This document shows, piece after piece, positions 3,703 through 27,403 of a stretch of DNA of 27,990 nt. The stretch's first letter is position 1. Each line of letters opens with the position of its first letter. The position numbers were made by a program, and so were the translations under genes. The notes under the pieces are model-generated. The model had not been told where the DNA came from. It searched no databases and was given only the letters and a program-made list of their open reading frames with translations. Source of the DNA: an uncultured Coriobacteriaceae bacterium (GTDB lineage: Bacteria > Actinomycetota > Coriobacteriia > Coriobacteriales > Eggerthellaceae); NCBI GenBank assembly GCA_902781245.1, contig CACZIP010000001.1, positions 1 to 27,990 on the forward strand, written 5' to 3'.

Positions 3703-3727
3703 AAGTACAAGACGGAAAGCGGAGCTC

Positions 3728-7979: not shown

Positions 7980-8017
7980 GCAAGAACCGCTGAAACGGAA
8001 ATCGACAGAAGGAAAGT

Positions 8018-9331
8018 TTACTCGGAGATTTCAATATCTACATCGTGCAAGCGAATGGCACCCCAGTAGTTGTGGTGCCAATCAAGATAATTCTTTTCGT
8101 CGAGCTCTACCACCACATCGAACACCACTCCCGGGTACACGCCGTCGAGAATATCTTCATTGCCTTCTTCATCGTGGAAAAACGCTACAAGATCGGCGCT
8201 ATACTGCCCTGTCGTCAAATGCGACAAATCCATGCGCATATGGATTTTGTTGACCCCTTCGTGTAGATCGACGAACCCTCTCGAGAGCATTGTGCCGATC
8301 TTTGTGCCATCTTGCGACCAGAGCTCGAAGCGGAAGCCCACCTGCGCAAGCGGACGCAAAGCCGTGCACGACAACTCCAACTCCACCGTTTCATCAGCGG
8401 CGAACGTAGGAGCGTCTTTACCGAGGATATCAAGCGTGTCGATGTTAAGCCGTCGGTTGAGCCGCAAGTATTCGTCATAGGGACGATAGCCATCATCATA
8501 TTCATAGTGCGTTTGCAACAACGTGTTGCCACCACCCAGATAAAGAGCAACGGCCGCATCAACATCGCCATCAAAGACGATCTTCCCCGCATCCATGACA
8601 ATGCAGCGGTCACACAAACGTTTGATGGTGCTCATATTGTGACTCACATACAAAACGGTCCTATGTTCCTGTTTTGCAGCTTGCCGCATTCGGTCGAGAC
8701 ACTTGTGCTGGAATTCCATATCGCCAACTGCCAGCACCTCGTCCATAATCATGATTTCGCTGTCCAGGTGCGCAGCAACTGAGAAGCCTAGCTTCACGTA
8801 CATGCCGCTTGAGTAGCGCTTTACGGGCGTGTCGATGAAGTCGCGAACTTCCGAGAACTCGATGATGTCTTCCATCTTCTCGTCGATTTCACGGCGCGAC
8901 ATACCCAAGATAGCACCGTTGAGATAGATGTTTTCACGACCTGTCATTTCGCCATTGAAGCCCGTGCCAACTTCAAGCATAGATGCGACTCGGCCATACA
9001 GGTCGATTTCGCCTTCCGTGGGGGCTGTGATGCGACTTAGGATCTTGAGCAGTGTCGACTTTCCAGCACCGTTCTTCCCGATGATGCCGAGCGCCTCGCC
9101 CTTGTACACCGTGAGATCGAGGCCATCGAGCGCATAGAAGTCATCATCCCTCTTCGGTGCAGCACCATCGACTTCGCCAGACCGTTCTATCTGCCTCCGC
9201 TCGCGCCATTCTTTTATGTCGCCTTGGAGCGTACCGCTGCCAATCTGACCAAGACGATAACGCTTACGCAAGCCCGAAATCGCAATGATCGGTTCACGTT
9301 CGGTGTTCTGTCTGCTTGTCTGATGCGCCAT
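8018..9331 (-). CDS. wzt: Polysaccharide ABC transporter ATP-binding protein Wzt with C-terminal Wzt_C-like domain, 437 aa
   Basis: ATG at 9331, 2 nt after the wzm stop. IAISGLRKRYRLGQIG, Walker A GKNGAGKST, YSSGM, IMIMDEVLAVGD, VSHNM; beta-rich C-terminal extension. Confidence 0.92.
   Translation of the reverse strand: MAHQTSRQNTEREPIIAISGLRKRYRLGQIGSGTLQGDIKEWRERRQIERSGEVDGAAPKRDDDFYALDGLDLTVYKGEALGIIGKNGAGKSTLLKILSRITAPTEGEIDLYGRVASMLEVGTGFNGEMTGRENIYLNGAILGMSRREIDEKMEDIIEFSEVRDFIDTPVKRYSSGMYVKLGFSVAAHLDSEIMIMDEVLAVGDMEFQHKCLDRMRQAAKQEHRTVLYVSHNMSTIKRLCDRCIVMDAGKIVFDGDVDAAVALYLGGGNTLLQTHYEYDDGYRPYDEYLRLNRRLNIDTLDILGKDAPTFAADETVELELSCTALRPLAQVGFRFELWSQDGTKIGTMLSRGFVDLHEGVNKIHMRMDLSHLTTGQYSADLVAFFHDEEGNEDILDGVYPGVVFDVVVELDEKNYLDWHHNYWGAIRLHDVDIEISE
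8859..8890 (-). repeat. 32-bp perfect inverted repeat, arm 2 (inside - wzt)
   Basis: TCGATGATGTCTTCCATCTTCTCGTCGATTTC is the reverse complement of 7137-7168. Confidence 0.85.
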
Positions 9332-9333
9332 AT

Positions 9334-10173
9334 CTACACCGTATCCACGAACGTTCGCTCCACGCGATTGAACATAAGGATGCCGCATACCGCACACACC
9401 AGCGCAACCACGATGCTAATTCCCGTTGTAATGGGATCGATGGTCCCCGAGCCCAGCAGGGCGAATCGAAGCCATTCTACTGGCGCCGTTACCGGATTCA
9501 GCATCACGACGGTTCGCAGTATCCCTTCGGGAATCTGCGAAAGCGGGTACACGATGGGAGTGCCGAACATCCAAAGCTGCATTCCGAACGACACGAGAAT
9601 TTGCAGGTCGCGATATTTTGTCGTCAAGCTGGACAAGATGATGCCCACACCCATACCTAGAACACAAAGATGCACAAGAGCGAGTGGAATGATCAGCCAC
9701 ATCAACCAGTTCGGGCTTACCGTGCCTTGCACGACGAAGAACGCCACCAATGCAAGCACGAGAATCATCTGTATGCCGAACCGGATGAGCCCTACGAGTA
9801 GATTTGAAACAGGTACAGTGAGCCGCGGGAAATATACCTTGCCGAACACGTTTGCATTCGCAATGAACGTTGCCGCATTGTCGGTGACCGCTGATGCAAA
9901 CAAGCCCCATATAGCCGTGCTCGCTAGATAGAACAGGATTTGGGGTACTCCATTGGTACTGATGCCGGCTATGACGCCAAACACAAGCATATAGGCGATG
10001 CTCGACAGAAGCGGACTGATGATTATCCACGCAGGCCCCAGCACCGTCTGCTTGTACGTGAGCGTGAACGTCTTTTTCGTGAGCAGCACGATGAGGTCGC
10101 GATATTGCCAAACTTCACCAAGGTTGAGCCCTACGCACTCCGTTTCGGAAGATATGTGGACATGATAGGTCAT
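9334..10173 (-). CDS. wzm: Polysaccharide ABC transporter permease Wzm, 279 aa
   Basis: WQYRDLIVLL...TYKQTVLGPAWIIISPL, ANVFGKVYFPRLTVP, LTTKYRDL, WMFGTPIVYP, LNPVTAPVE; about six hydrophobic segments. ATG 10173 overlaps the upstream TGA (ATGA). Confidence 0.93.
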   Translation of the reverse strand: MTYHVHISSETECVGLNLGEVWQYRDLIVLLTKKTFTLTYKQTVLGPAWIIISPLLSSIAYMLVFGVIAGISTNGVPQILFYLASTAIWGLFASAVTDNAATFIANANVFGKVYFPRLTVPVSNLLVGLIRFGIQMILVLALVAFFVVQGTVSPNWLMWLIIPLALVHLCVLGMGVGIILSSLTTKYRDLQILVSFGMQLWMFGTPIVYPLSQIPEGILRTVVMLNPVTAPVEWLRFALLGSGTIDPITTGISIVVALVCAVCGILMFNRVERTFVDTV

Positions 10174-12848
10174 AGCAAATAGATTAACCCCCTCTTGGAG
10201 CTTGTTTCGTGAGGCTCTCGCCAAGAGTCACCATAGTATAAATCGAGCCACTTCTCTGCATTTCCCGGAACGGGGATGGTGGTACCTTCAAATGATACGC
10301 GGACCGCGTGGGCAATATCGGCTTCAGCGAACCGCACGTGATTGGGCCTGCGGCGATAGTTCCCGGTGAAGCAGGTGAGCAAGCCCGTGGGCTTCACCGC
10401 TGTGCAGGATGCGCGCAACCCGCGGCAAAGCGCAGAACGACTCACCAGGTCGGCGAGCAGGAAGTATGCACTTACTTTGTGGGGATCGGCATCCCAGATT
10501 TGCTCGAGATTGTCATAGGTCTTCGCATAGAGCAGCCTTTGCCATGTGCGCACGATGCGTTGCCGCTTCTCGACCTCCGCATCGTCGAGAGGACAATTGT
10601 CGAGGGGAAGAATATCTATCCACACCCCCTCCTCTTCTGAATGCTTATCGTTCTCCGACCTCTCTACAATCGCAGATAGATTGCGTAATTTAGCATAACC
10701 GCCGGTGAAGCTCGCAGCATCATTTTCGGGGGTCTGAAGAACAAACGGTTCGGGAAATACACCACATGCAGCCAGTTCAGTCAAACGATCGTAATCTGCG
10801 CGGGGCATAGCCACATCGATATCATCGTCTCCTGAAACGAAGCCGCCCTCGCGCACGGCTCCAAGCAACGTGCCGTGCGTCGCAACGTACTTCAGATCGA
10901 ATTCTTCGCACACGGCATCGAAAACATCGAGCAACTCGAGCATCGCATACGTAATGTCGCGCTTCGCAATCTGATTGCCGTCCATGCAAACGTCGCCTTC
11001 AACTGCATCATCACTTGCAGCTGCGTCGCCAACTGGATTGTTGAGCGGTATCAGTTCGTCAATCCGCTTCGTAAGCACACGCCCGCTCAAGTCATCGACG
11101 AGTGTCATGCTGTCTGTGTCGCACAGGTCGAGATACGGCATTATGGCATTCAGGAAGGCTGGAGATATCACGTCGCCTTTTTCGTACCAATGCCTGAAAT
11201 ACTCGCGCGCGAAAAGCTTGACACCTTTATGCACATCTTGAAGAATCCGCAGCTCTCCAGAAGTGCGGTATTCAGTGCTGAAAACTGGCGTTCCGTCATC
11301 GTCGAAGCCTTTCAACGATGGTTCGGTTGAGCTCAGGTAAGGTTCGAGGACGAGATAGCGCGAGAAAAAGCTCACATGTTCGCTGTCGAAATAGAGCGAA
11401 CATGTGAGCTTGCGAGAGATGTTGTTCCCTATGCGCGATCCAAAATAGAACCCTTTGAGACAGAAGGGAGCGAACCGCTCGAGTTGACGCTGGCACGTTC
11501 CCGCACCAACGAACTCGACAAACGCATATGTTTTTCCCAAGCCGAGACCGCACGAAGCGAAATAACTCAGGGAATTGTCACGCTCGACCGTCGAGACAAT
11601 TGCAGCACGACTAGCATTGCGCGACGTATAGAAATACCTCGACAAAGGATATGGCCCCCCCGCGCATTGGCTCCGGAAGATATCGTACACGCCTTTCACA
11701 AGAAACCCGTCTCGCGAGACGAACAACGCTTCCTCGAATACTTCCGGAGATTTCGCAAAACAATCCGCCAACCACGTCACAAACCCGACAACCAGAGGCG
11801 CAACTATTGCAACAACCTTGGCAGACCGTTTGTCAATAGCGTCGGAAATATCGGGCAAAACCGCACGCGCGCACGACAAGAGGCGATCATCAGGCGCTCG
11901 CCCCTCTTCAACTACCTCGTCTTCATACCAAATTCCCCTCGGAACAATCTCTTCTCTCAAGCCTTCGAGTCGAATGCCGTTTGGCACTTCCAACAAACTC
12001 GTCAATACAGATCGCTTGCCATAACAGAGGGGAATGTAACAGTCGCGAAGGATATCCATGCCGATGTGAACCGTTGCACCTGAAGGCAGATGCCTGTACA
12101 TGAGTCGATAGAGGCCGTTTTCGGCAAATGAATCCGTTTCTGCCGCCAAGAACAACGGTCCCGTATTCGCCAGGCCAGCTTGTTCGAGTAGAGATAGAGC
12201 GGTCTTCTTGTCCACTGCGGGATCGACGCAATAGTATGCAACCTTCTTGCCTTTTGCGAGTTCGTAGGCAAGAATCGAACTGAGGCACTCGGAAATATCC
12301 ACCTGATTTCGAATGCACTTTGCAATTTCCATTGTCGCCGCCGCGCCGATAAGCAACCCTATGCTAACGCAAAGGGAGTTGCTCGACTCGATTTCTTCCA
12401 GCTTGCTTTCCAACGATTGCGCGATTGCTCGCTGAGTCAACGCCTCTATGGCCTCGCAATCGTTGCCATACATGTCTAGTAAGCGCACTCCAGCATCGAA
12501 GCATCTTTCACGAATGCGGCTGATGACAGCAAGAGCAGAAGTAAACTTAGCAGCGACGATAAGCGCATCAATTCCCTGAGAAAGAACGGCTTCGAGACTC
12601 GATACCACGAACTCGTCCACCGTCTCGCCAATTGCATTGTCGTCGGCAATCGCCACAACATCGAAGCACCGACCTTCGGCGTCGAGAATGTAATGCGCAT
12701 TTGCGCCTGACCCATACAATGCAACTCGTCTACCTTGAAGGTTCTTGCTCGCAGACAAAAGCGCTGCGAGACGATAGTCCGTTTCGCACTCAAAGTCTGC
12801 TGGTTTGCGAATTGAAACCCCAGCGTCTTTACATAGAAGCCTGTTCAC
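10170..12848 (-). CDS. 892-aa multidomain protein: Rossmann-like module + degenerate HAD + putative phosphoribosyltransferase-like (SRDG) domain + C-terminal LicD-family phosphotransferase
   Basis: RVALYGSGANA; degenerate HAD VHIGMDILRD; FVSRDG, YFYTSR, AFVEFVGAGTCQ, GFYFG; LicD motifs LLDVFDAVCEEFDLKY, HGTLLGAVREGGF, GDDDIDVAMPRADYDRL, WIDILPLD, LDLYYGDSW. GTG start is uncertain. Confidence 0.8.
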   Translation of the reverse strand: MNRLLCKDAGVSIRKPADFECETDYRLAALLSASKNLQGRRVALYGSGANAHYILDAEGRCFDVVAIADDNAIGETVDEFVVSSLEAVLSQGIDALIVAAKFTSALAVISRIRERCFDAGVRLLDMYGNDCEAIEALTQRAIAQSLESKLEEIESSNSLCVSIGLLIGAAATMEIAKCIRNQVDISECLSSILAYELAKGKKVAYYCVDPAVDKKTALSLLEQAGLANTGPLFLAAETDSFAENGLYRLMYRHLPSGATVHIGMDILRDCYIPLCYGKRSVLTSLLEVPNGIRLEGLREEIVPRGIWYEDEVVEEGRAPDDRLLSCARAVLPDISDAIDKRSAKVVAIVAPLVVGFVTWLADCFAKSPEVFEEALFVSRDGFLVKGVYDIFRSQCAGGPYPLSRYFYTSRNASRAAIVSTVERDNSLSYFASCGLGLGKTYAFVEFVGAGTCQRQLERFAPFCLKGFYFGSRIGNNISRKLTCSLYFDSEHVSFFSRYLVLEPYLSSTEPSLKGFDDDGTPVFSTEYRTSGELRILQDVHKGVKLFAREYFRHWYEKGDVISPAFLNAIMPYLDLCDTDSMTLVDDLSGRVLTKRIDELIPLNNPVGDAAASDDAVEGDVCMDGNQIAKRDITYAMLELLDVFDAVCEEFDLKYVATHGTLLGAVREGGFVSGDDDIDVAMPRADYDRLTELAACGVFPEPFVLQTPENDAASFTGGYAKLRNLSAIVERSENDKHSEEEGVWIDILPLDNCPLDDAEVEKRQRIVRTWQRLLYAKTYDNLEQIWDADPHKVSAYFLLADLVSRSALCRGLRASCTAVKPTGLLTCFTGNYRRRPNHVRFAEADIAHAVRVSFEGTTIPVPGNAEKWLDLYYGDSWREPHETSSKRGLIYLL

Positions 12849-12852
12849 CGCA

Positions 12853-13797
12853 TCAACGCCTTAAAAACTCTGCGGTTTTCATGATGCCCTCATCGACTGA
12901 AACGTGCGGCTGCCAGCCGAGCATCTCCTTCGCTAACGAGATATCCGGTTTACGCCGTGCAGGATCGTCAGAAGGCAGGTCGCAGAACACCACCTTTGAG
13001 GATGAGCCCGTGAGGGCAATCACCTTTTCGGCGAGCTCGAGCATGGTGAGCTCCTCGGGATTCCCCAGGTTAACCGGACCTGTGAACCCTTCGCATTCCA
13101 TCATGGACACGAGCGCATCGAGCATATCCTCCACGAAGCAGAAGCTTCGTGTCTGGGTGCCGTCGCCATATATCGTGACGTTTTCCCCCGCAAGGGCTTG
13201 AGAAATGAAATTCGTCATCACGCGTCCATCGTCAACACGCATGCCGGGGCCATATGTGTTGAACACTCGGACAACGCGGATTTCCACGCCATACATACGG
13301 TGGTAGTCGAAGAACAAGGTTTCCGCAGCACGTTTCCCCTCGTCATAGCATGCACGCACGCCGATAGGATTCACATTTCCTCGATAGTTTTCCCGCTGCG
13401 GATGCTCCAGCGGATCTCCGTAGATTTCGCTGGTCGACGTCAGAAGCACTCGTGCATTGGTGCGGCGAGCAAGCTCGAGCACGTTGATGGCACCGAAAAC
13501 GCTCGTCTTCATCGTGGCGATAGGGTCGGCTTGATAAAAAGGGGGGCTGGCTGGACATGCGAGGTTGTAGATATGACCAACTTTTTCAATCGAGTTGAAG
13601 GCGCTTGCATCAGCCACGTCGGCTTTCAGGAACGAGAAGTTCGGATATGCAACAAGATCGGCTATGTTTTCTTCTCGGCCCGAAATCATATTATCGAGAC
13701 ATACAACCCGTTTGCCTTCTCCCACAAGGCGTCTACATAGGTTGGAACCGATAAAACCAGCGCCACCTGTCACAAGCGCCGTTTTGTCAAACCCCAC
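12853..13797 (-). CDS. uxs: UDP-glucuronic acid decarboxylase (UDP-xylose synthase), extended SDR family, 314 aa
   Basis: [92 protein letters not shown] 13797 follows AGGAGG. Confidence 0.92.
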
Positions 13798-13849
13798 GAT
13801 TACTTTCCTCCTGTTTTTAAGCCAAGCCCAACGGCGCATGCCCAGACCA

Positions 13850-15334
13850 CTAACGTCTGATCCTTTTCTTTATTTTCCTGACTGCCCTAATGGCCTGCTT
13901 TCCCGCTTTGTAAAGCCGGGGATGTGATAAATGCACTCCAACTCTGAACTTGTTCAAAAGATAAACACAGCGAGGAACAGTATACGTTTGCATTTCCGCG
14001 CCGAGGTAGCGCGCAACATTGGCCTTCATCTCCTCGGCATATTTTGCAGCGGTAATTATTACAACATCAAGGTTGAGGGAAGCCGCGTCTGCAATACCAA
14101 TGACTGGTTTTCCACAAAACGTTTTACCTGGAGCTGCATCTGTTTCTAAAAAAAAGCAAGATCTCCCCTTCGTGTCGAACACCTTGAGAAAGCCCTTGCA
14201 TGCCATGCCTGTTCCGTAGAATCCAATACGAGATGCCGACTCGATTATCGGCACATTACAATGTATCAGTGATTTCACCAGGTCCTTCGTAAGAACGACA
14301 GGCGAATTCGGCCACACAGCGACACCATCCGCGAGGTTTATCACCGCAGAAAGGTGCATGGACCTGACGGCATCGGGAAGATCATCTCGAGCGCATTCCT
14401 CGCATAGGAACCGGACGAAGCATGACGTCAGCTCGCGAAGGTACTCTGTTGGCTCAAGCCCCGAAAACTCCCTAAAACGGCAATCTTTCACACCGCTCAC
14501 GTTTTGTATCATCATCAGGTGTGCCCGATCGTGTTCTGCACGCGCCAAACTGCATAAGATGGCATGCACATCGAAACTGCTATCTGCTAAAACGTGCGTG
14601 AATCCCGATCGGACGTTCGACCCTGAGCGCGAGCGATAGCGATGAAGCCTGAGCGGCACGAATTTCATCCGCTTAGCTGCCATGAAGATTCGCACAATCC
14701 AGTCGTTGTCTTCGAAGTAGATGCCCTCGACAAAAGTCAAATTGTTCTCAATAAGAAACGAGCGGTCGAAGTATTCGAGCCAGCAGAGGAAACCTATCAT
14801 TCCTTCGGGGAAATAGCGGTTCCAAAACGAGACCCCATCAATGACATCTTCATCGATTATCCCGCGACGATCACGAAAATCGCGAAACAGTTCGGGGCGC
14901 ACGACGTTGGGGTCGTCGACGAATCCGGCGGTTTCGAACGTTACAAAATCCAAGTCAAATTCCTTGCAAACTCGGTAACACGTTTCAAAGTGCTCGGGAA
15001 CAATCCAGTCGTCAGAATCCATGAAGTAGACGTACTCGCCGCGAGCTTCCAGGAGGCCACGGTTACGAGCTGCCCCTTGCCTAAGATTGGGTTGCTGGAT
15101 TACACGAACTCTCGGATCGCGGTCTTCATAGGAGCGCTCTATCTCAAGGCTACCATCGGTCGAGCCGTCATCGACGAGAATGACTTCAATTTCTTGCTGG
15201 GTCTGTGCGAGCACGCTGTCGAGACAGGCCGGCAAGTATTCCTGCGTGTTGTATACGGGAATGATGACCGAGGTTTTCGGAACGGGAGCGCTTGCTGTGA
15301 ACGAGGCATTCGCGATGGCTGCTGATTTGAGCAT
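13850..15334 (-). CDS. GT2 family glycosyltransferase with C-terminal Rossmann-like module, 494 aa
   Basis: [66 protein letters not shown]; C-terminal [11 protein letters not shown]...GKPVIG...LDVVII. RBS GGAGG. Confidence 0.92.
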
Positions 15335-15543
15335 ATGGTTATACCTCCAGCTTAATCGCTAAAAACGCCGATGGCATTGAAGTATCCCCGAATATCCCGT
15401 CCGTGATTCGAGCTACCATGTGTAACTCCTTGCAGCACGCCCTTCAAACTCGTTTGCCTTTACCAGAAGGCATGTGTAATCATACAACGTAAATCAGGGC
15501 ACATGTGCTCAAGCATAGCAACCACTGAAAGAGATGTTTCACC

Positions 15544-17622
15544 ATGCTGTTCATTTCCAGGCGCTACCTTTGTATCTATCGCTCGAACGAGAAACTCGAC
15601 GTCGTGGAAAAACGCAATTTGCGAGAACTCCTTGAAGCAAGGCCTTCAAATACCATCTATTTCGAAACCGCCGATAACAAGCTCTACGGCATGATTTCCT
15701 ATGGGGACATCCGCAAGGCAAGGGATGGGATAGTGCGCATAAACAATTCTTTCGTTTCCCTCGAGCGCGATGCATATATGGAAGCTCGGGAACGTTTCCG
15801 TAGGTCAAACAGCATCTGTGAAATACCCGTTGTTAAAAATGGCCAGCTTGTTGGCGAGTTTCACAAGTTTGACGATGAGCTCATGATCGACCGCGCCGTG
15901 GACCTTGATAACAACGCATACGCACCTGCCTATTTTGCGAGGCTTCGCAACGTCGCTATTGTAAAGCCTCCTGCGTCACGCGATTACAAAATGCGTTATT
16001 TCGAGAAGCTGAAACGCATCTTTGATCACTATGCAGTCGCATACACGGTCCTGGAAGTTTCAGATATCGCGCAGAATCTCACGCGCTTCGACAGGTTCTT
16101 CGTCGTAGACGAGCAAGAGCGGCGAGGGGTGCATATTATCATCTCCCTCTTCGAAGACAAGCAGCATTTCTTTTACAAGATAGTCACGTTCCTCAGAATG
16201 CTCAACAGAATCGAATCGGATGAGGCAATCGACTACAAGAAACTATTCTCCGAGCTCGAAAAGCGAGGCGTCGAGACGGTCCTCATGACCACGAAGCGCA
16301 ATGATTCCAATTACGTCGTAAAAACGGAAAAGGAAATGAAGGAGCGGTTTCCCACAGTTGCCAACAATCTCAACGAGCTCATGGTGCAATATGAGCAGCA
16401 ATTCTTTGACGACCTCTACGAGAAGACGTACGCTCGCGAAATCGAAGCTTGTCATTTCTCCATCCAAAGAGTTCGAGATGGTATACGCCTGAAAGATATC
16501 AAGAGCGAACTCGTGAACGTCGAGCATGGGGAACGAGCAACGGTCGACCAGCCCGACGACTACGAGCGATGCATCTACTTCTTTGGACAATGCCTGATTA
16601 TCGGAGCGTACGTTGACGATGCGCACACAATCGAAAGCTATTTGCAAGCCATGGTCAATGAAGCAGGTTATAAAGCGCGCATTGTGAATTGCGGATGCTG
16701 GGGAAATGCCATCCAGAGCGTTGTCCGAATGCTTGCCACCCCATTAAGGGAAGGCGACATCGTGGTGATGCTGTCAGAAGATCCCGATGTAGACACCACG
16801 AATCTGAAAACCGTCGATCTATGGCAAACACTCGAAAAAAACGGGGCCCCTTCCCAATGGATGCTCGACATTCCCTTCCATGCCAACCATCATGTTTCGG
16901 AGCTATGTGCAAAAGCGCTCTTTGACGTCATTTTCGATTCCAGATACAAAGACAAGCCGAGAAGCACTGAAGTAATCACGCAGGGCTTCGACATCGTGGA
17001 CCAGTTCTTCACACAGAATTATTTCCACGGTCAAGACCTGAGACGTTTCAATCGGGTAGCGTGCTGCGTCTTCAATGGCAACCCTTTCACCAACGGGCAC
17101 AAGTATCTTATCGAGACCGCCTCGAAAGCTGTAGACCACGTATATCTGCTCTCGTTGAGGGAGAATTGCAGCATGTTTTCCTTCAACGAACGCTACGCGA
17201 TGGCTGTTGACGCAACGAGTAACTTGCCTAACGTCACCGTCGTGCCAGACAGCCTTTCAGTCGCTGACGCCACCAACTTCCCCGCATATTTCATCAAGGT
17301 TTACGAAGGTGATGCCGAAGAGCAAATCGAACGACACGTCGAAATGTACGCCGCCATAGCAAAACCGCTTCATACCACACATCGCTATGTTGGGGAAGAA
17401 GCCCATGACCTCGTAGCCAATGGCATCAATGAGGCGTGTAAGAGAATTCTCCCCCGTTACGGAATCAAAACGGTGGTGGTCAAACGCAAGGAGGACGACA
17501 GCGGAGTCATCACAGGATCATGCGTCCGAGAACTTGCCGCTAACAACAATCCCAGACTTGACAGTCTTGTCCCAAAGGCAACCGCCAACATCATCCGCTG
17601 CAAGGAGATCAACGCTTTTTAG
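15544..17622 (+). CDS. 692-aa fusion: CBS-like N-terminus + SGNH-like domain (Cys at nucleophile position) + C-terminal [citrate (pro-3S)-lyase] ligase (CitC)-like adenylating domain
   Basis: CBS-like KLYGMISYGDI and EIPVVKNGQLVGE. SGNH-like YFFGQCLIIG, NCGCWG, DIPFHANH. CitC-like VFNGNPFTNGHKYLIE, SMFSFNERY, NLPNVTVV, FPAYFIK, RYVGEE, ITGSCVRE. Confidence 0.75.
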   Translation: MLFISRRYLCIYRSNEKLDVVEKRNLRELLEARPSNTIYFETADNKLYGMISYGDIRKARDGIVRINNSFVSLERDAYMEARERFRRSNSICEIPVVKNGQLVGEFHKFDDELMIDRAVDLDNNAYAPAYFARLRNVAIVKPPASRDYKMRYFEKLKRIFDHYAVAYTVLEVSDIAQNLTRFDRFFVVDEQERRGVHIIISLFEDKQHFFYKIVTFLRMLNRIESDEAIDYKKLFSELEKRGVETVLMTTKRNDSNYVVKTEKEMKERFPTVANNLNELMVQYEQQFFDDLYEKTYAREIEACHFSIQRVRDGIRLKDIKSELVNVEHGERATVDQPDDYERCIYFFGQCLIIGAYVDDAHTIESYLQAMVNEAGYKARIVNCGCWGNAIQSVVRMLATPLREGDIVVMLSEDPDVDTTNLKTVDLWQTLEKNGAPSQWMLDIPFHANHHVSELCAKALFDVIFDSRYKDKPRSTEVITQGFDIVDQFFTQNYFHGQDLRRFNRVACCVFNGNPFTNGHKYLIETASKAVDHVYLLSLRENCSMFSFNERYAMAVDATSNLPNVTVVPDSLSVADATNFPAYFIKVYEGDAEEQIERHVEMYAAIAKPLHTTHRYVGEEAHDLVANGINEACKRILPRYGIKTVVVKRKEDDSGVITGSCVRELAANNNPRLDSLVPKATANIIRCKEINAF

Positions 17623-17715: not shown

Positions 17716-17994
17716 TCATAACTCGTAAATGTAGTCGACGACGCATCTTCCCTCGTCAATAGCCCATTCGCCTTCCTCCTGCGGCTTGTTCCTGAATGTC
17801 TCCTTCGCTGCTTCGAGCATCTCGCGATCTGAGAGCTTGCCCTCAAGACGATTGCTCATAAGCGACCTGAAACGCGGTAACGTATCAAATGAATATCGAT
17901 ACACTGGCGAACAGGTCACATCAACGTCTTCGAGGTAGCTCTTCGTGTTGGGGTCTATTTCGGGGAAGCAGTATTGCGCCTCAATCCAGTTCAT
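17716..17994 (-). CDS. Hypothetical protein, about 92 aa
   Basis: ATG 17994 overlaps the last codons of the carbamoyltransferase, consistent with coupling. It fills the gap to the convergent gene. No recognisable motif. Confidence 0.45.
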   Translation of the reverse strand: MNWIEAQYCFPEIDPNTKSYLEDVDVTCSPVYRYSFDTLPRFRSLMSNRLEGKLSDREMLEAAKETFRNKPQEEGEWAIDEGRCVVDYIYEL

Positions 17995-19807
17995 AGGAAA
18001 TTGCAACTCTTTTCTCAAGGGGCTGCTCGTCTTTGAACAAGACGAATCTTTGTAATATCAATACGTCCATCTCGGTGCTCATAAAGCAACGGTACGCATC
18101 TTCCGGCGAGCATACTATCGGCTCCCCTCGCACGTTAAACGAAGTATTCACAACAACACCGCAACCCGTACGCTTCTCGAAGGCTTTGATTATCCCGTAG
18201 AAGAATGGGTTGGTTTCCTTTTCGACTTTCTGCACCCTCGCACTATAGTCAACATGAGTCACTGCGGGTATATCTGAGCGCCTTGAATTGACAATGGGTA
18301 TAAGGTCGGGATCGTCGCTCAGCCGATCTTTGAACATATCACCCTCCCCCTCGCGGTTCTTCACGTATGAGCAGAAGAGCATATAGGGTGAATGCAATCC
18401 ATCTTCGAAATAATCGGAACACCGCTCCTCGAGAACGGCGGGCGCAAACGGCCTAAACGACTCTCGGTACTTAATGCTCAGGTTCAAACGTGCTTGCATG
18501 GTTTCCGACCGTGGGTCGGTGATAATGCTTCGATGTCCCAAGGCGCGGGGACCGAATTCCATGCGTCCGGAAAATAACCCAACGATCTTCTGGTCTGCGA
18601 GCAAATCGGCAACCGTTTCCTCCAGCTCATGGGGCTGCATGAGCTGATAGGGGATGCCCTCTTCTTTGAGAAACGCTTCAATATCATCATCTGAATACTC
18701 CGGGCCCAAGAAGCTTCCCCGCTGAGCATCGGGACGCTTCACAACACGCGGTTGTCCTCGTTCAACGTGATAATAAGCGAGCGCCGCCCCGAGCGCGCCG
18801 CCCGAATCACCCGCTGCAGGCTGCACCCAAATATCGTCGAATAAGCCTCTTCTGGCCAGCTTCCCGTTCGCGACACAATTGAGAGCAACTCCCCCGGCCA
18901 TGACGAGTCTCGACTCCCTAGCAAGGTTCCTTGCTGTGCGCGCAAGCTTCAAAACAGCCTCCTCGACGACAGCTTGTGCCGACGCGGCTATGTCCATTTC
19001 ACGTTTAGTTATCTGGGATTCCGGCTCTCGCTTCGGCCCACCGAACAATGACGCGAACCGTTCGTTTGTCATGGCTCGTCCATGCTGGAAGTCGAAATAT
19101 TCGAGATTAAGACGAAAAGACCCGTCATTTTTGATGTCAATTAGTTTTTCCCTTATTAAATCGACGTATGTCGGATTGCCATAGGGAGCCAAGCCCATAA
19201 GTTTGTAGTCGCCATAATTCACGCGGAACCCACAAAAACTGGTAAAGGCACCGTAGAAAAGACCGAGCGAATGGGGATAATCGATTTTTTTCAGAAGCCG
19301 GATATCGTTGCCTGAGCCAACGCCGATCGCAGTCGTGTTCCATTCGCCGACACCATCGATAGTTAGAATTGCGGCGCTTTCGAAAGGTGAGGGATAGAAC
19401 GCCGACGCTGCATGCGAGTAATGGTGCTGAACCGCGAAAAGACAGTCTTCTTTCCCCAGCTTCCCTAAATGCGAACGAAGAAGCTCCTCTATCCAGAGCT
19501 TCTTCCCAAATAGGGCACGGGAGCTCAAGTTAACAAGTTCGCTGGCATCGTCGTCAACTGCAGTTATGTTCGAAACATACCTATGCAACGAGAGAAGCGG
19601 ATCGTCATAGAAGACAACTGCATCAAGCTGACCGCCTGTCAGATTGCCCCCCGCACGTAAGCAGTAATCGATAGCGTTAACTGGTAGTGACTTATCAAGC
19701 TTCACACGCGTGAAACGCTCCTCTTGGGCAGCAGCGACAATGCTCCCGTCGCATACAAGCGCAGCGGCAGAGTCGTGATAAAGCGCCGAGACACCGAGAA
19801 CATACAT
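17981..19807 (-). CDS. O-carbamoyltransferase, NodU/CmcH/TobZ family, 608 aa
   Basis: LGVSALYHDSAAAL, AAQEERFTR, HHYSHAASAF, TIDGVGE, YKLMGLAPYG, AGGVALNCVANG, QPAAGDSGGALGAA, GRMEFGPRALGHRSI, RESFRPFAP, NTSFNVRGEPIV, C-terminal ELD. Confidence 0.95.
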   Translation of the reverse strand: MYVLGVSALYHDSAAALVCDGSIVAAAQEERFTRVKLDKSLPVNAIDYCLRAGGNLTGGQLDAVVFYDDPLLSLHRYVSNITAVDDDASELVNLSSRALFGKKLWIEELLRSHLGKLGKEDCLFAVQHHYSHAASAFYPSPFESAAILTIDGVGEWNTTAIGVGSGNDIRLLKKIDYPHSLGLFYGAFTSFCGFRVNYGDYKLMGLAPYGNPTYVDLIREKLIDIKNDGSFRLNLEYFDFQHGRAMTNERFASLFGGPKREPESQITKREMDIAASAQAVVEEAVLKLARTARNLARESRLVMAGGVALNCVANGKLARRGLFDDIWVQPAAGDSGGALGAALAYYHVERGQPRVVKRPDAQRGSFLGPEYSDDDIEAFLKEEGIPYQLMQPHELEETVADLLADQKIVGLFSGRMEFGPRALGHRSIITDPRSETMQARLNLSIKYRESFRPFAPAVLEERCSDYFEDGLHSPYMLFCSYVKNREGEGDMFKDRLSDDPDLIPIVNSRRSDIPAVTHVDYSARVQKVEKETNPFFYGIIKAFEKRTGCGVVVNTSFNVRGEPIVCSPEDAYRCFMSTEMDVLILQRFVLFKDEQPLEKRVAISYELD

Positions 19808-19808
19808 G

Positions 19809-21470
19809 CTACAGCCGCTCCTTCAATAGCTGGTATACATGCTCGGCGATGATGCGATTTGCAGCATCGGAATAGTGACATCGATCGATGTATGCGCCAT
19901 CTTGATGATGGAACATGTCAAGAAAATTGAAATAGAAATCATCGTCGCGAGCACCGAAAAGAAAAGCTCTGCCCCATTTATGGTTCTCTGACGTGAAATA
20001 CATGTTTTCGAATAACGAGTTTATCCGCATGCATGCATTCATGGGCTGCAATATCGCTATAAACTCTGCTCCTTCTTCTTCGACAACAAGCTTCATGTAC
20101 TTTTCCACGCGACGCCAGAATTCGAAGGGGTTATCACCGTGAACCTGTTCGAATTTGTTCTCCTGTGCACGCTGATCGTTTACACCACTCAAACTTATAA
20201 CGAAATCGGGCTTGAGCGCATGGATATCGCGCAGCAGACGGGACATTTCCTGTGTCACGCCATTGCCCTCGTTTGCGCCGTTGAAAACAACAGCTTTGAC
20301 CCCATCTGCCTCGAACATTTTGTACAGTTTTTCGACCCAGCTTTCCGGATAGTACAATTCGGTTGATGTGCTGCCACCAACAACAACAATGCGCACAGTC
20401 GCTTCGGCCTCATCTCCATGCACCATCCATCCCGGCTTACCGCCGAGGCACGAATAATCGATGCTAGCTAACATCCGAACGTCATACTCATAATCCACAA
20501 CGTGATTCAGCAAATACTCATTGTTTACAGACAGCTGTAAAGAGCCACAATCGGCTTTCTCCATTGAATAACCGAGGTCGTATGCGGCTCCGAGCATTTC
20601 GAGTCGCTGACGGTTTGAGAAAGACCCGATGATCACTGCGCTTCGATCGGAATCTTCGTCAGCCAAATCCCAAATATCCCCCGCGCTTTCGCCTTTGCGG
20701 GTCATGAAAACCTCGCGATCCACGTTTATCCCATAGGCCGACAACAAGCGGCTTAAAAGTGCTCGTGAAGCATCATCCCCACAACAGAGCAAGAGACGAC
20801 GGTGTTCTTTTGCAGACTTGTCTAAAACATATACAAGATTATCTCCCCAGAGTGAAAAGTGCGGCACAACCTCCCGAATGTATATCGTCCCGCGAAATCC
20901 GATTGCGAGCAAAACTGCTACTTCATCCCCTATCTGGCAATGGGAATCCGCAGCCACGATCACGGCATCGTCCGCATTCAGAGGAGCCTCCTTTATCGTA
21001 TACACAGGAACCCCGAGGATAGATACGGTTTTCGTCACTGTTTTTTCCGTAATGAACCCGCTCACAGCACCCACGCCTACCTTGGAAACCTTCTTTGCAA
21101 TATCCCATGTCAATTCCCCGGTTCCATAAAGATACGGTGATTTGCACTCGAGGTTCGGATTGAGTTCTAAGGCTTCGGAATAGTACAGAGCGTATCCGCG
21201 AGAGGCCACAACGTTGAAAGCACCTTCCCGGACATCGTCATCCACGATTGCAATAGCGTCCTCCAATTCCGAAAACTCATCGACGGACACGATAGGCAAT
21301 CCCATTATGGTATCGCCAACAAACTCACTGAAATTGGTGACAAACCCCTCGACCCTGACACCGCGAAGCGCAAGCGCCGAGAACACCCATATAGCTTTTC
21401 TCCCCATGTCCCATACGTATATTGACTTGTCCTTCAAATCGCGCCGAAGCGTATACAGGTGTTCTACCAT
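19809..21470 (-). CDS. Protein with tandem N-terminal Rossmann-like modules and C-terminal SGNH/GDSL hydrolase-fold domain, 553 aa
   Basis: ATG 21470 with GGAG 8 nt upstream. SIYVWDMGRKA and YLYGTGELT modules. SGNH blocks VVGGSTS, FNGANEG, SLSGVND, IDRCHY. No signal peptide. Confidence 0.7.
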   Translation of the reverse strand: MVEHLYTLRRDLKDKSIYVWDMGRKAIWVFSALALRGVRVEGFVTNFSEFVGDTIMGLPIVSVDEFSELEDAIAIVDDDVREGAFNVVASRGYALYYSEALELNPNLECKSPYLYGTGELTWDIAKKVSKVGVGAVSGFITEKTVTKTVSILGVPVYTIKEAPLNADDAVIVAADSHCQIGDEVAVLLAIGFRGTIYIREVVPHFSLWGDNLVYVLDKSAKEHRRLLLCCGDDASRALLSRLLSAYGINVDREVFMTRKGESAGDIWDLADEDSDRSAVIIGSFSNRQRLEMLGAAYDLGYSMEKADCGSLQLSVNNEYLLNHVVDYEYDVRMLASIDYSCLGGKPGWMVHGDEAEATVRIVVVGGSTSTELYYPESWVEKLYKMFEADGVKAVVFNGANEGNGVTQEMSRLLRDIHALKPDFVISLSGVNDQRAQENKFEQVHGDNPFEFWRRVEKYMKLVVEEEGAEFIAILQPMNACMRINSLFENMYFTSENHKWGRAFLFGARDDDFYFNFLDMFHHQDGAYIDRCHYSDAANRIIAEHVYQLLKERL

Positions 21471-21587
21471 TAGCGCCACTCCTGTTAAACAGCTCCTGTG
21501 AAGAGCAACTCCAAGAATCGATTGGGCTGATCTGCGTTAGTTCGCATTTCGCTCATTTCGCCACATCAATCATCATAGCATCGCCTT

Positions 21588-22943
21588 TTATAGAGCGTTC
21601 ACAGCGTCAACGATGATCTGGAGACGTCCGCGGTCAACCCGCCCATTTGCAATGCTGTCGAAGAGAAGCTGAATGAGCTCGAGGCTCAACATGACAAGAA
21701 CAGCTTTCGCGTATTGCCGTTCCGCGAATTCATGCCCCCTATATTGAACAAGATGTGAGTACAGGTTGTCATAAAGGCTGTTCCTCGCTTTTCGATAGGA
21801 AACCCGACCAACCCTAACGTTTCTTACCTGCAAGCTGAATAGGAAATAGCACACGTCGCACAATGGATCGCCCATCGCAACAGTATCCAAGTCTACAAGG
21901 TAATACGTCCCTTGGTAATACACGAAATTCGTATACGAGCAGTCTCCATGGCATGGCCTGAGCGTGGTTGACAATAAGGCGAGCCTCGACGCCACTCTCT
22001 CTTCGCATGCATCGATTGCCAGCTTTGCCTCATATTCAAACTTCAAGCAGCGCTCAAAAACCTGCGAGAAATAGCGGTATCGCTCCTCCAAGTAATCAAA
22101 GACGACGGGTGCAACGAGGCTCATTTCGTGAAAACGCCGAATACAATTCAGTGCGTTTGCTACCACTTCCCGGTCATTGAAGCGAATGTTGAAAAATGGT
22201 GTTGCATAGCGGTCAATTCGGGCTCCATCATCACGCGCGCAAACGAGAAGCTCCGTCCCAACGCGATGCTGTATTAACCAGGCTGTACGATTTGCTGTAT
22301 TCCACTGCTCCGGTGCGGCAAAGACACGAGTAGCGTGCTCCTTGTCATACGGCATGCGAAACATATACTTTATCGTGTCGACAACATAGCCGAAAGAAAC
22401 GCTGTTTTCCCCGCCCCTCATCGTAAAGAAGCTGTCCGCAGCCTTTTCGCCATGCGCCTCTTTGTACAAAGCACGAAACGATTCGTATACCATCGTAGAA
22501 TCGCAGGCCCAGCCACCGAGCCTTAGAGATCGTTTAATTAGGGGATCATGCGTGACCATTTCCTCCCAATTGTTGTAGTAATACGTTATGTGTCTACGAT
22601 TTACGCAAACTGGAAGATTGGATATATCGAAGAGCAATCGAAGCTCAGCAAGGATTTCCTCTGAAAAACGCTGACTCGAAACGACAAGATAGTACTCGTT
22701 GAAATCAAGGGAAGCCAAATAATCGAAAGGTTGAATACGATAGCTGCGTCCGCAAAGCTCAATGATTTTACCCACTTTATTCGGACTGTTGTCAATAACA
22801 TGGGCGACATTGGGCAATTCCATCTCATTCATGAGATTGAGACAGCCTCTACCAGCGCCACATATGATGGCATGTCGCTGGGTAACGTCTTGCTCGTCGT
22901 CTTCGCACGAAATGCAAATCTGCATACATGGCTCCAGAATCAT
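21588..22943 (-). CDS. Choline/ethanolamine kinase-like (APH superfamily) phosphotransferase with N-terminal Rossmann-like module, 451 aa
   Basis: AIICGAGRGC...IDNSPNKVG; kinase features MRGGENS, KYMFRMP, IRRFH, PCHGDCSYTN, LVDLD, MGDPLCDV. ATGA coupling to the upstream gene. Confidence 0.75.
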   Translation of the reverse strand: MILEPCMQICISCEDDEQDVTQRHAIICGAGRGCLNLMNEMELPNVAHVIDNSPNKVGKIIELCGRSYRIQPFDYLASLDFNEYYLVVSSQRFSEEILAELRLLFDISNLPVCVNRRHITYYYNNWEEMVTHDPLIKRSLRLGGWACDSTMVYESFRALYKEAHGEKAADSFFTMRGGENSVSFGYVVDTIKYMFRMPYDKEHATRVFAAPEQWNTANRTAWLIQHRVGTELLVCARDDGARIDRYATPFFNIRFNDREVVANALNCIRRFHEMSLVAPVVFDYLEERYRYFSQVFERCLKFEYEAKLAIDACEERVASRLALLSTTLRPCHGDCSYTNFVYYQGTYYLVDLDTVAMGDPLCDVCYFLFSLQVRNVRVGRVSYRKARNSLYDNLYSHLVQYRGHEFAERQYAKAVLVMLSLELIQLLFDSIANGRVDRGRLQIIVDAVNAL

Positions 22944-24793
22944 TCACCATTATCGAGAGGAGAAAACTGTTCGAGAACTTCGCACAACAACTCTTCGACA
23001 TTTCCAGTGTAAACAAGGTCAGTCGCATGCGGATGAACGCCCATCCGTTTTAGGCTAAACGTATCGGGAATAATCCCCGTGCCCTGCTCGTATAAAAGCA
23101 CCATCGTGCAATCCGAAGCAATGCTCGCAATATCGCACAGACCGCTCCGGATGGAGACGAACCCACCCGCACGGTTGAGGAAATCAGCTATTTCGTCGAA
23201 TGGCACGCAGATTCCCAAAGTGCCCTCGATGGCCCCCTCATCCGTGCTGCAATTCGTGCAAACGCCATATCCGCGACCAATCAACGCACGGGCAAGCCGG
23301 TCCCAAAAGTCTGTATGCTCAAGCAATACTGAACTATAAGCATTGGCGTAGGGCGCAAGAACCACCGTCATGCCAGGTCGAAATCCAACACGTGAAAACA
23401 TATCCTCGGGAACAGGATGCTGCACGGGGGCGGCGAGATCGAGGGGCCCCTCGTAAAAGAAGTATTGGAACCTCATGCTGTTGAGGTGATGACGCCAAGG
23501 CGGGAAGTGCCCGTTCTCCTTTTTGGGCAGTATGTTTCTCACGAGTCGGCTTCCTAAATGCAAATCTGGCTTCATGTTCATGCGGCATCCACCGAAGAAG
23601 TCCCACGCCTTGTATAGAGCCAAGAGATCGTCGATTGGGCATGTCCGGATTCCATCAATTCCGAACAAAGCAGCGACATGGGCATCGGCTTTGCTTGATT
23701 TGCGCTTTTCTAGAAGCAAGGTGTAGTTCTCGATTGAGGAACACTTCAAGTACTCAGGCAACAAGGTGCAGAGCCAGAAGACATCGCCCGTGCCGCCGAT
23801 GCTTGTAATGAGCAAACCATCCCCGAGTTGTTGGCGAAGCTCGTAGCCAGCACACGCTTTCGAAAACTCTTCCTTCAACGTCGCTTCGTCATCGCCAAGC
23901 GACCGCGCAATACCCCAATCGAGAGGGATTTCATATATTTGGTCATCTCGGTAGCCCAGTTTTGCAAGACACCCGCGCATTGCGCGCGCATGCTTCTCGA
24001 CGACGATGATGATTGCATTTTCGTCATAAGGACAAAGAGCATGTTCCGGCAACTGACAGCGTAGCGACATCTCTACATTAAAGCCATCTTTTTCCGGATT
24101 GCTATCCAAGAGCCCCGCTACTTCGAAACCGCAATCTCTCAACGAACGGCAGATATCGCCTGCAAAGTGAGTCAACCCGAAAATGTATACGTTTTTGTCC
24201 GCGAATTGAGATGCGTTTTCCCTGATTGCTTGCACGATAGTACGCGAGCTTGCGTTCCACCATCCCCAGTTCACTGGTTTGGCGCAATAGATTCCATCCC
24301 GAACGAATTGCTCAAGCGTAATACCGCAGTTTCCAATCCATGCAGAACATGAATAGGGCTCTTCCAGAGAAACGACGATTACATCATCTGCAAACTGGAC
24401 TAAACGATAATACGCCAACAAATCGGCAAGATCATTTGCCTCGATATGCCTGAAGGTGATCTCGCAATCGCCAAACATTCGATGGCCGTTAATATCGATG
24501 CCAGCATCATCAGATATGAGAACGATGGCACGCCGATAGTATTGTTCGTTTACATATGTTCTCAGAGCATCGCCGAGCGCGATCCGATTCAACTGGTCGT
24601 TATCGGATGGCACGATAATCCAGCAATCATGCTCGGTAAGATCAAGCCTCTGTTTGAGCGCGCGCACAATCACGCGACCTCTATCAGCGCGACCATAATC
24701 GCCAGTAAGCTCATCTGGCGCTAAAAGTCTAACAGCGCCCCCCGAAGCTAGGTCAGCCGATTCCTCTGCTTCTTTTGCTTCATATTGCCTCAT
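22940..24793 (-). CDS. Multidomain putative GT-B glycosyltransferase (GT9/heptosyltransferase-like C-terminus) with central Rossmann-like module
   Basis: C-terminal ITSIGGTGDVFWL, VVLAPYA, FWDRLARALIGRGY, FVSIRSGLCDIA (GT9-like GxGD and xSGxxH/D patterns); central NVYIFGLTHFA...LDSNPEKDG. Start is uncertain (ATG 24793 or GTG 24826). Confidence 0.55.
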   Translation of the reverse strand: MRQYEAKEAEESADLASGGAVRLLAPDELTGDYGRADRGRVIVRALKQRLDLTEHDCWIIVPSDNDQLNRIALGDALRTYVNEQYYRRAIVLISDDAGIDINGHRMFGDCEITFRHIEANDLADLLAYYRLVQFADDVIVVSLEEPYSCSAWIGNCGITLEQFVRDGIYCAKPVNWGWWNASSRTIVQAIRENASQFADKNVYIFGLTHFAGDICRSLRDCGFEVAGLLDSNPEKDGFNVEMSLRCQLPEHALCPYDENAIIIVVEKHARAMRGCLAKLGYRDDQIYEIPLDWGIARSLGDDEATLKEEFSKACAGYELRQQLGDGLLITSIGGTGDVFWLCTLLPEYLKCSSIENYTLLLEKRKSSKADAHVAALFGIDGIRTCPIDDLLALYKAWDFFGGCRMNMKPDLHLGSRLVRNILPKKENGHFPPWRHHLNSMRFQYFFYEGPLDLAAPVQHPVPEDMFSRVGFRPGMTVVLAPYANAYSSVLLEHTDFWDRLARALIGRGYGVCTNCSTDEGAIEGTLGICVPFDEIADFLNRAGGFVSIRSGLCDIASIASDCTMVLLYEQGTGIIPDTFSLKRMGVHPHATDLVYTGNVEELLCEVLEQFSPLDNGE

Positions 24794-25163
24794 CGATATA
24801 ATATTCAATCCCTTCAAAGCGATCACGAATGCAGTTCACCGCATATGCAGTGGCTAACCCGGAAGGCTTTCTGTCGTTGATCAGAATTCGCTCCCCGCAA
24901 GGCGCATTCCAGATGATGCAATCGAAGCGCATCCCCTGATCCAAAAGGAACGACTCCGTTTGCTTGCGGTATTCTTCTGATCGAGCTGTAATGAGAACGA
25001 CCATGTCATCCTCACCGAGTTGGTTCAAAAACTCTCTCGCGCCCGGAAGCACCATATCCCCTTGCTCGGTTTTGTAACCGTTGTGTTTGACAAGCAACCC
25101 GTCGATATCGATAATCCACGTCTTCGGCAGGGCTGATAGCCTGAGAGCGTCATTTGAGCCCAT
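24780..25163 (-). CDS. Small capless HAD-superfamily phosphatase, 127 aa
   Basis: Motif I IIDIDGLLV, motif II ITAR, motif IV LINDRK; overlaps both neighbours. Confidence 0.8.
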   Translation of the reverse strand: MGSNDALRLSALPKTWIIDIDGLLVKHNGYKTEQGDMVLPGAREFLNQLGEDDMVVLITARSEEYRKQTESFLLDQGMRFDCIIWNAPCGERILINDRKPSGLATAYAVNCIRDRFEGIEYYIDEAI

Positions 25164-27296: not shown

Positions 27297-27403
27297 AAAC
27301 CTATACCTCCTTACCGGCATGCAATATGGCGCCCTGCTGCATTTCAGTCATGTAGCATCACCCCTCGCGCAATCAGGCTTCGCTTGGATTCGTTTGACGT
27401 CTT

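Follow-up and report, generated by a model that had tools for sequence, protein, structure and literature searches.

The gene at positions 15544-17622 (plus strand) of a 27,990-nucleotide stretch of DNA from an uncultured Coriobacteriaceae bacterium (assembly GCA_902781245.1, contig CACZIP010000001.1; the whole stretch is called the window here) encodes a 692-residue protein in which an SGNH-fold domain, carrying cysteine in place of the usual serine nucleophile, is fused to an adenylating domain of the CitC type. We suggest that this protein is an ATP-dependent, carboxylate-activating enzyme of glycan tailoring, a reading to which sequence comparison leads us to give a probability of roughly three in four. 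The particular chemistry that we propose, in which an acyl-AMP would be formed, the acyl group taken up as a thioester by Cys350 of the same chain and then transferred with the help of a histidine to the nascent glycopolymer, is drawn from analogy with known enzymes, and we put it at a little under an even chance; for this scheme we infer which acid is used, that a thioester forms on the way, what accepts the acyl group and in which direction the reaction runs. The pair of domains defines a real and large enzyme family, predicted to unite a CitC-type ligase and an SGNH acyl-enzyme, with Dlt-like logic, in one cytoplasmic polypeptide.

The ligase domain and the SGNH domain

Translation of the open reading frame (ORF) runs from an ATG at 15544 to the stop codon TAG at 17620-17622, and the start is supported by the fact that Met1 lines up with the first residue of 17 homologues. 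Hydropathy averaged over 19 residues reaches at most 0.99, so the 692-residue chain contains no membrane helix, and it is a predicted soluble, cytoplasmic protein. An AlphaFold2 model of the full chain, built with 18 homologues as input, has a predicted local distance difference test score (pLDDT) of 86.9 and a predicted template modelling score (pTM) of 0.86, and the parts follow one another as a CBS pair (residues 1-121), an alpha/beta domain (122-277), the SGNH-fold domain (278-500) and the CitC-type ligase (503-690). The features are listed below; conservation counts, here and throughout, were taken from an alignment of 185 relatives.

15544..17622, plus strand: whole gene, encoding the 692-residue soluble protein (ORF list and translation)
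15544..15906, plus strand: CBS pair, residues 1-121 (VIA fold match)
15907..16374, plus strand: alpha/beta domain, residues 122-277 (confident AlphaFold2 model)
16375..17043, plus strand: SGNH-fold domain with a helical and hairpin N-terminal part, residues 278-500, candidate acyl-transfer domain (domain model, fold and profile matches)
16534..16536, plus strand: Arg331, in the hairpin ahead of the SGNH core (kept in 180 of 185)
16591..16593, plus strand: Cys350 (TGC) in FFGQC, the SGNH block I nucleophile position (on Ser of GDS in 9otv, 7c23 and 7c29)
16687..16704, plus strand: NCGCWG, block II equivalent (N382 in 176 and G384 in 163 of 185)
16867..16881, plus strand: D442-IPF-H446, block V equivalent of the form Dx3H (His on the block V His of 9otv)
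17050..17613, plus strand: CitC-type HIGH-motif adenylating domain, predicted to activate carboxylates, residues 503-690 (PF08218)
17074..17100, plus strand: NGNPFTNGH, HIGH-type ATP-binding motif with H519 (N513, P514, F515, T516, G518 and H519 each in 173-178 of 185)
17509..17529, plus strand: ITGSCVR, second nucleotide-binding motif of the ISxSxxR type (R662 in 174 of 185; on ISASRVR of E. coli CitC)
15335..15543, no strand: divergent intergenic region between a GT2 glycosyltransferase gene and the gene at 15544 (ORF map and sequence)

NGNPFTNGH, Cys350 and the residues D442 (16867-16869) and H446 (16879-16881) lie exactly where they were placed by an earlier reading of this DNA made by a model from the letters alone (the sequence-only reading), and the motifs NCGCWG, ITGSCVR, SFNERY, FPAYF and RYVGEE that it named are present in the translation.

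In the C-terminal domain, residues 505-682 are covered by PF08218 (Citrate_ly_lig), from position 1 to position 180 of a profile 182 positions long (E 4.7e-39), and residues 495-685 align with residues 133-334 of E. coli CitC at 30% identity (E 1e-23), all the CitC motifs being common to both; the motifs noted at the C-terminus by the earlier reading are intact, and the likeness is far beyond chance. Conservation extends over the ATP-binding residues as a set, with R550, R614, E619, N629 and R662, like the residues of the HIGH-type motif, each kept in 173-178 relatives. The best structural match of the domain is PPAT (Z 15.5), and two structures of the acetate-activating enzyme TmcAL, 5y0n and 5y0r, match it at Z 11.7 and 10.9.

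With so clear a catalytic domain, the protein might simply be a true CitC that acetylates the acyl carrier protein of a citrate lyase encoded elsewhere in the genome, and the genome in hand is just 71% complete. The likeness to CitC, however, stops at the catalytic domain: the CitC family model TIGR00124 is matched at model positions 138-326 only and reaches 129.9 bits against an equivalog cut-off of 262.1, and the N-terminal half is missing, residues 1-132 of CitC giving no significant alignment to the 692-residue protein. The surroundings are those of a glycan locus, and cit genes are absent among the ORFs of the window, as the sequence-only reading had said. Searches of the window's own genome found no CitD, CitF or CitX, nor was CitD found in the genomes of five further carriers, of which four come from records without the label of a metagenome-assembled genome (MAG). 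We therefore give practically no credence to a role in citrate lyase activation.

A different objection is that the C-terminal domain acts as a nucleotidyltransferase, activating a phospho-alcohol or a sugar phosphate (as TagD, LicC and PPAT do) for a phospho-decoration made by the locus, and not a carboxylate. The domain does belong to the HIGH superfamily and has weak matches to CTP_transf_like (PF01467, E 0.0045) and CoaD, and LicD, kinase and cytidylyltransferase genes abound in the window locus. Nevertheless, PF08218 is matched over its full length and far better than PF01467, the 30% identity to E. coli CitC includes the CitC-specific motifs, and the locus has cytidylyl- and nucleotidyltransferase genes of its own at 82-3702 and 25758-27320. 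This explanation is highly improbable.

The middle domain was less easily placed. Fold searches with the whole protein were swamped by the ligase domain, and residues 276-502 were therefore folded alone, on 69 homologues, which gave a domain model with a pLDDT of 93.2. In an exhaustive structural search the best 50 VIA matches of this model were SGNH/GDSL proteins without exception, headed by the crocagin hydrolase CgnD (8a2n, Z 13.1 over 168 aligned residues) and followed by GDSL esterases at Z 9.8 or less (4rw0, Z 9.8), with OatA and PatB, both acyltransferases, further down at a Z of about 7. Structural neighbours in AFDB and Atlas were likewise SGNH proteins, and no close structural relative was found in the Swiss-Prot part of AFDB. 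No Pfam model covering the domain was found; among 69 members there were two weak matches to Lipase_GDSL and one to Lipase_GDSL_2.

Sequence profiles lead to the same fold. Profile A2 of the middle domain, run against PDB sequences, finds the lysophospholipase L1-like esterase 9otv (E 4e-5), and the alignment puts GpC on GDS of block I, VvNcG on VINAG of block II and HcN on HPN of block V. Because the cysteine falls on the serine of GDS in this alignment, Cys350 holds the nucleophile position by homology and not by spacing alone, and the serine of a canonical GDS(L) block I is not present. In block II, N382 and G384 are conserved and lie on VINAG, and G387, aligned to the glycine of the canonical ISG, is variable. 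The SGNH fold, which had been guessed from the spacing of short motifs, is accordingly supported by both profile and structure. The SGNH label itself stands in part: fold, nucleophile position and block V histidine agree with it, but the block III asparagine is not conserved, the acidic position is occupied by D, N or E, and the spacing to the histidine is Dx3H. Two other folds for a cysteine-bearing domain were considered and ruled out: a low-molecular-weight phosphatase, with its cysteine after strand 1, since the CX5R motif is lacking and the fold matches are to SGNH proteins, and a class I glutamine amidotransferase, since none was among the fold matches.

The sequence-only reading had named conservation of the cysteine among homologues as a check on its proposal, and the cysteine is indeed conserved. 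Position 350 is Cys in 175 relatives and Ser in 7, with a gap in the remaining 3, and His446 is kept in 180. Gly348 (182) and Asp405 (179) are as strongly conserved, as is Arg331. Position 442 is looser (Asp 127, Asn 35, Glu 8). All seven Ser variants retain Asp442 and His446; the trend of Asp in these seven versus Asn in 35 Cys forms is not significant (a rough estimate gives about 0.07). On a tree of the two-domain core the Ser variants are scattered and correspond to seven changes, at least three of which are forced by well-supported branches. Because Cys and Ser have been exchanged repeatedly in this way, position 350 would be an interchangeable covalent nucleophile, and the pattern argues for covalent nucleophilic catalysis and speaks against a structural, metal-binding or redox role.

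A cysteine and a histidine beside an ATP-using domain also recall amidotransferases. The ligase could adenylate a carboxyl group of the glycan, for example on a uronic or nonulosonic acid, and the Cys-His domain could provide ammonia as a glutaminase of a new type, giving a sugar amide as the product. The pairing of a Cys-His(-Asp/Asn) domain with an ATP-pyrophosphatase-type domain follows the logic of GMP, NAD and asparagine synthetases, the SGNH protein CgnD cuts an amide bond, and NeuB and DegT genes occur in some loci of the family. We know of no SGNH-fold glutaminase, however, and the fold searches returned no class I amidotransferase; the ligase domain is specifically CitC-like, that is, of a kind that activates small acids; and in glycan loci the role is already filled by Asn_synthase-type amidotransferases, one of which was seen in locus L005. 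Taken together, these points make an amidotransferase very unlikely.

Proposed mechanism and its alternatives

In the scheme that we propose, the protein would carry out cytoplasmic, ATP-dependent tailoring of the surface glycopolymer made by the window's own ATP-binding cassette (ABC)-transporter-dependent locus (Wzm/Wzt, GT2, LicD and carbamoyltransferase). The C-terminal CitC-type domain would first take ATP and a free short-chain carboxylate to form an acyl-adenylate, with acetate as our default guess, since CitC and TmcAL both use it. Cys350 of the SGNH domain would then attack the adenylate to give an acyl-thioester enzyme, thereby playing in cis the part that a prosthetic-group thiol plays in the CitC reaction. 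Finally, His446, with Asp442, would activate a hydroxyl or amino group of a nascent lipid-linked glycan or a nucleotide sugar, which would take the acyl group from Cys350. Neither coenzyme A (CoA) nor a carrier protein would be required, and the CBS pair would be an optional regulatory addition.

The scheme builds on established enzymology. CitC forms acetyl-AMP and then acetylates a thiol; TmcAL has the same nucleotidyltransferase fold and activates free acetate; and the SGNH acyltransferases OatA, PatB, AlgX and DltD work through an acyl-enzyme.

Several observations weigh against the scheme. TmcAL passes the acetyl group from acetyl-AMP directly to its acceptor, without a covalent enzyme intermediate. 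The block III asparagine of the oxyanion hole is not conserved in the 185 relatives, positions 411-413 after the GD-IVV strand being variable, and in 35 of them Asn stands in place of Asp442. In the full-length model the pLDDT falls below 50 at residues 350-353, as against more than 95 for the Cys350 loop in the domain model. CgnD, the nearest solved structure to the middle domain, is a hydrolase and not a transferase, described as a Ser79/His esterase-type protease (PMC10070186). Full-text literature searches found no paper on a family that combines SGNH(Cys) and CitC domains.

The points on TmcAL and CgnD lend themselves to another explanation, in which the ligase domain moves the acyl group from acyl-AMP straight to the sugar, as TmcAL (Z 11.7) does with acetate and a tRNA nucleophile, and the SGNH(Cys) domain is a separate module: a de-acylase, an esterase, an editing hydrolase or a binding site for the acceptor. 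Most SGNH proteins are, like CgnD, hydrolases. On the other hand, the acceptors of CitC-type domains are thiols, and the presence of Cys in place of Ser in about 95% of the family is what would be expected of an adenylate acceptor and is hard to explain for a plain esterase; moreover, a writer invariably fused to its own eraser would amount to a futile cycle. We judge direct transfer quite unlikely.

The scheme might instead be right in outline and run through a further thiol. The CitC-type domain would then acylate CoA, 4'-phosphopantetheine or the thiol of an acyl carrier protein (ACP)-like partner, from which the SGNH(Cys) domain would pick up the acyl group by transthioesterification and pass it to the glycan, in a reaction driven by ATP and dependent on a thiol cofactor. 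The natural acceptor of CitC is a thiol derived from dephospho-CoA, and PPAT, which binds phosphopantetheine, tops the structural matches of the ligase domain (Z 15.5). In a neighbour survey with an ORF cut-off of 70 residues, below which shorter ACP-like genes fall, the commonest partner family occurs in at most 12 of 81 loci, and there is therefore no dedicated carrier conserved beside the family. Ten neighbour clusters were annotated, the commonest included, and all ten are sugar-pathway genes. The tight and invariant fusion of the two domains is also most simply understood as a direct hand-over. A thiol relay is, in our estimate, unlikely, and we return to the in-cis thioester as the preferred scheme.

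If the in-cis scheme holds, the family could represent a very widespread and so far unrecognised route of glycan acylation. One soluble enzyme would adenylate a fermentation acid in its free form (acetate, propionate, lactate and so on), capture the acyl group on its own SGNH cysteine in an E1-like manner and write it onto the nascent cell-wall polymer without CoA or a carrier; through paralogues and fusions, the cell surfaces of anaerobes in gut and rumen would then come to differ chemically with the short-chain acids around them. We offer this wider picture tentatively, as something that may well prove otherwise; a bias of the carriers to habitats rich in short-chain acids is suggestive but anecdotal. 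To our knowledge, the characterised routes of glycan acylation all draw the acyl group from acyl-CoA or a carrier protein, and O- and N-acylation of the glycans on bacterial surfaces affects how phages, antibodies and lectins recognise them. A third route, using ATP and free acid, would couple the decoration of the surface directly to the short-chain fatty acids available locally. It would also provide the first SGNH enzyme with a cysteine nucleophile, and would account for hundreds of annotations as 'adenylyltransferase/cytidyltransferase family protein' in glycan loci from gut, rumen and termite gut.

Family range, accessory domains and genomic setting

An exhaustive HMMER search returned 2577 cluster representatives, 715 of them at E<=1e-30, and in species genomes (one genome per species) there are at least 592 family loci, 592 of 600 listed pattern matches being confirmed relatives. 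Among the matches listed, the carriers are, by record title, mainly MAGs from gut, rumen and termite gut, and they include Lachnospiraceae, Oscillospiraceae, Selenomonadaceae, Bacteroidales, Treponema and Campylobacteraceae, with a few cultured members (Stenoxybacter acetivorans DSM 19021, Selenomonas sp. AE3005, Bacterium 0.1xD8-71 and Bacterium D16-51). Database names of family members are generic, such as the one quoted above or 'CBS domain-containing protein'.

Architectures were compared by applying hidden Markov models (HMMs) of the single domains to 80 loci and the window; single-linkage clustering lumped multidomain fusions with the target cluster. The pair of SGNH(Cys) and CitC domains is the invariant core, found in 84 proteins, and the remaining parts vary. 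Fusion to glycosyltransferases is frequent, and the partners of the core include GT2 domains at either end, RgpF, a heparinase II/III-like domain, epimerase or NAD-binding domains, FrhB with ferredoxin, and radical SAM. In three members a 2x[4Fe-4S] ferredoxin and an FrhB/FdhB-like domain stand N-terminal to the core (L024:6417-9419, L051:6507-9461 and L030:6492-9344), and a gene for a polysaccharide pyruvyl transferase lies near the first of these, at 10323-11483. Fusions of this kind may tie the family to pyruvyl or lactyl chemistry. In a 1237-residue member (L059:6765-10478) a radical SAM domain (residues 936-1068) lies C-terminal to the CitC domain.

Two members depart from the intact form. 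In a Selenomonadaceae MAG (L073:7347-9180) the SGNH part (7347-8681) and the CitC part (8497-9180) occupy overlapping ORFs; either this copy of the gene is split or frameshifted, or the assembly is in error. The 852-residue protein P0005, from ENA, is 90-91% identical to the query over query residues 1-490 only and divergent afterwards, which may reflect another C-terminal fusion or a frameshift in a short contig.

The two N-terminal parts of the window protein belong to the variable portion. The N-terminus had been called CBS-like in the sequence-only reading, and a tandem CBS fold is what the structure gives: in the full-length model, residues 1-121 match many CBS pairs (4gqw, 5g5x, 6uof, 5ks7 and others) at VIA Z of about 10-11, the Pfam CBS match (22.1 bits, E 2e-4) lying slightly under its cut-off of 24 bits. 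About a third of the core-bearing proteins in related loci (26 of 84) carry a CBS pair, which is probably an accessory, regulatory module; that it exerts energy-charge control is pure speculation. The alpha/beta domain at residues 122-277 is restricted to a full-length subfamily, and it gave no Pfam match, no lead in Atlas and no paralogue within the window.

The gene sits between a divergent GT2 gene (13850-15334, minus strand) and a convergent pair of carbamoyltransferase and GDSL genes, and a consensus scan of the divergent intergenic region at 15335-15543 found no sigma-70-like site. The locus as a whole is ABC-transporter-dependent, with Wzm/Wzt, LicD, a CotH kinase and several nucleotidyltransferases. 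In the convergent pair (17981-21479, minus strand) a 608-residue carbamoyltransferase of the NodU/CmcH type is translationally coupled to a 556-residue protein with a canonical C-terminal GDSL domain; the pair, which adjoins our gene, would provide a second module for acyl or carbamoyl tailoring. The window also has two genes for Wzt-type ABC ATPases whose 3' ends face each other (6891-7979, plus strand, and 8018-9397, minus strand); of the two, the minus-strand copy alone encodes a Wzt_C-like carbohydrate-binding domain and lies next to a gene for a Wzm permease (9334-10224). Two further ORFs of the locus, of 628 residues (22940-24826, minus strand) and 407 residues (3464-4687, plus strand), have no Pfam match at E<=0.001.

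In the other loci of the family the annotated neighbours encode an epimerase, methyltransferases, a DegT aminotransferase, a hexapeptide acyltransferase, an aldo-keto reductase, a pyruvyl transferase, an IspD-like cytidylyltransferase, a TagF-type glycerophosphotransferase and NeuB. Three of the four loci obtained by exact-protein look-up are glycan loci; the Ser-variant locus has mostly unrelated neighbours. One capsule-type locus, L005 on a Logan contig (SRR1702556), has four genes at 12089-17498, directly after family member P0025 (10001-12073): a fused pyruvate-dehydrogenase-like E1, a fusion of a lipoyl domain with a PglD-like hexapeptide acyltransferase, an LplA lipoate-protein ligase and a dihydrolipoamide-dehydrogenase-like protein. 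This set is a possible second CoA-independent route, from pyruvate through acetyl-lipoyl to a sugar N-acetyltransferase.

Comparison with known systems

CitC (EC 6.2.1.22; TIGR00124, PF08218; E. coli b0618) has the same C-terminal catalytic domain, with the 30% identity extending over about 190 residues and the motifs NPFTNGH, F.F.ER, FP.YF.K, HR(F/Y)VGEE and I(S/T)(A/G)S.VR in both, and the presumed chemistry, from acid and ATP through acyl-AMP to an acylated thiol, is also alike. The GNAT-like N-terminal half of CitC is, in contrast, replaced here by SGNH(Cys), with the CBS pair and the alpha/beta domain ahead of it; there is no citDEFXG context and no CitD was found; here a cysteine of the same protein would serve as the thiol acceptor, and a glycan would finally receive the acyl group. 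The tRNA-Met cytidine acetate ligase TmcAL (5y0n, 5y0r) shares the HIGH-motif nucleotidyltransferase fold and uses ATP to activate free acetate, but it passes the acetyl group straight to an RNA base, lacks any SGNH or Cys domain and belongs to PF05636 and not PF08218.

With the SGNH/GDSL enzymes (OatA-C, PatB, AlgX, DltD, TesA) and CgnD (8a2n) the middle domain has the fold in common (Z 13.1 for CgnD, 7-10 for many more, a perhydrolase-type acyltransferase among them), together with the nucleophile after strand 1, a conserved N-x-G block after strand 2 and the block V histidine. It differs from them in having Cys at the nucleophile position (175 of 185), a variable block III Asn and a D/N/E acid in Dx3H, and in being cytoplasmic and fused to an adenylating domain, whereas for the known enzymes the acyl donor is a membrane partner, a carrier or an ester and not an adenylate. 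The E1 ubiquitin-activating enzymes have unrelated folds, show no homology and act on the C-terminus of a protein, and offer a mechanistic analogy only, in that a carboxylate is adenylated and then held as a thioester on a catalytic Cys of the same polypeptide.

The overall logic is that of DltABCD, the system for D-alanylation of teichoic acids, in which adenylation, a thioester intermediate and an SGNH-like transferase (DltD) likewise serve to decorate a cell-wall glycopolymer without acyl-CoA; no Dlt genes were found among the ORFs of the window. The Dlt system, however, relies on an adenylase of the ANL type, on a carrier that is a protein of its own and on a membrane protein of the MBOAT type, and it works outside the membrane, whereas in our case the whole sequence of steps would fall to a single soluble chain in the cytoplasm, equipped with a HIGH-type adenylase and an in-cis Cys.

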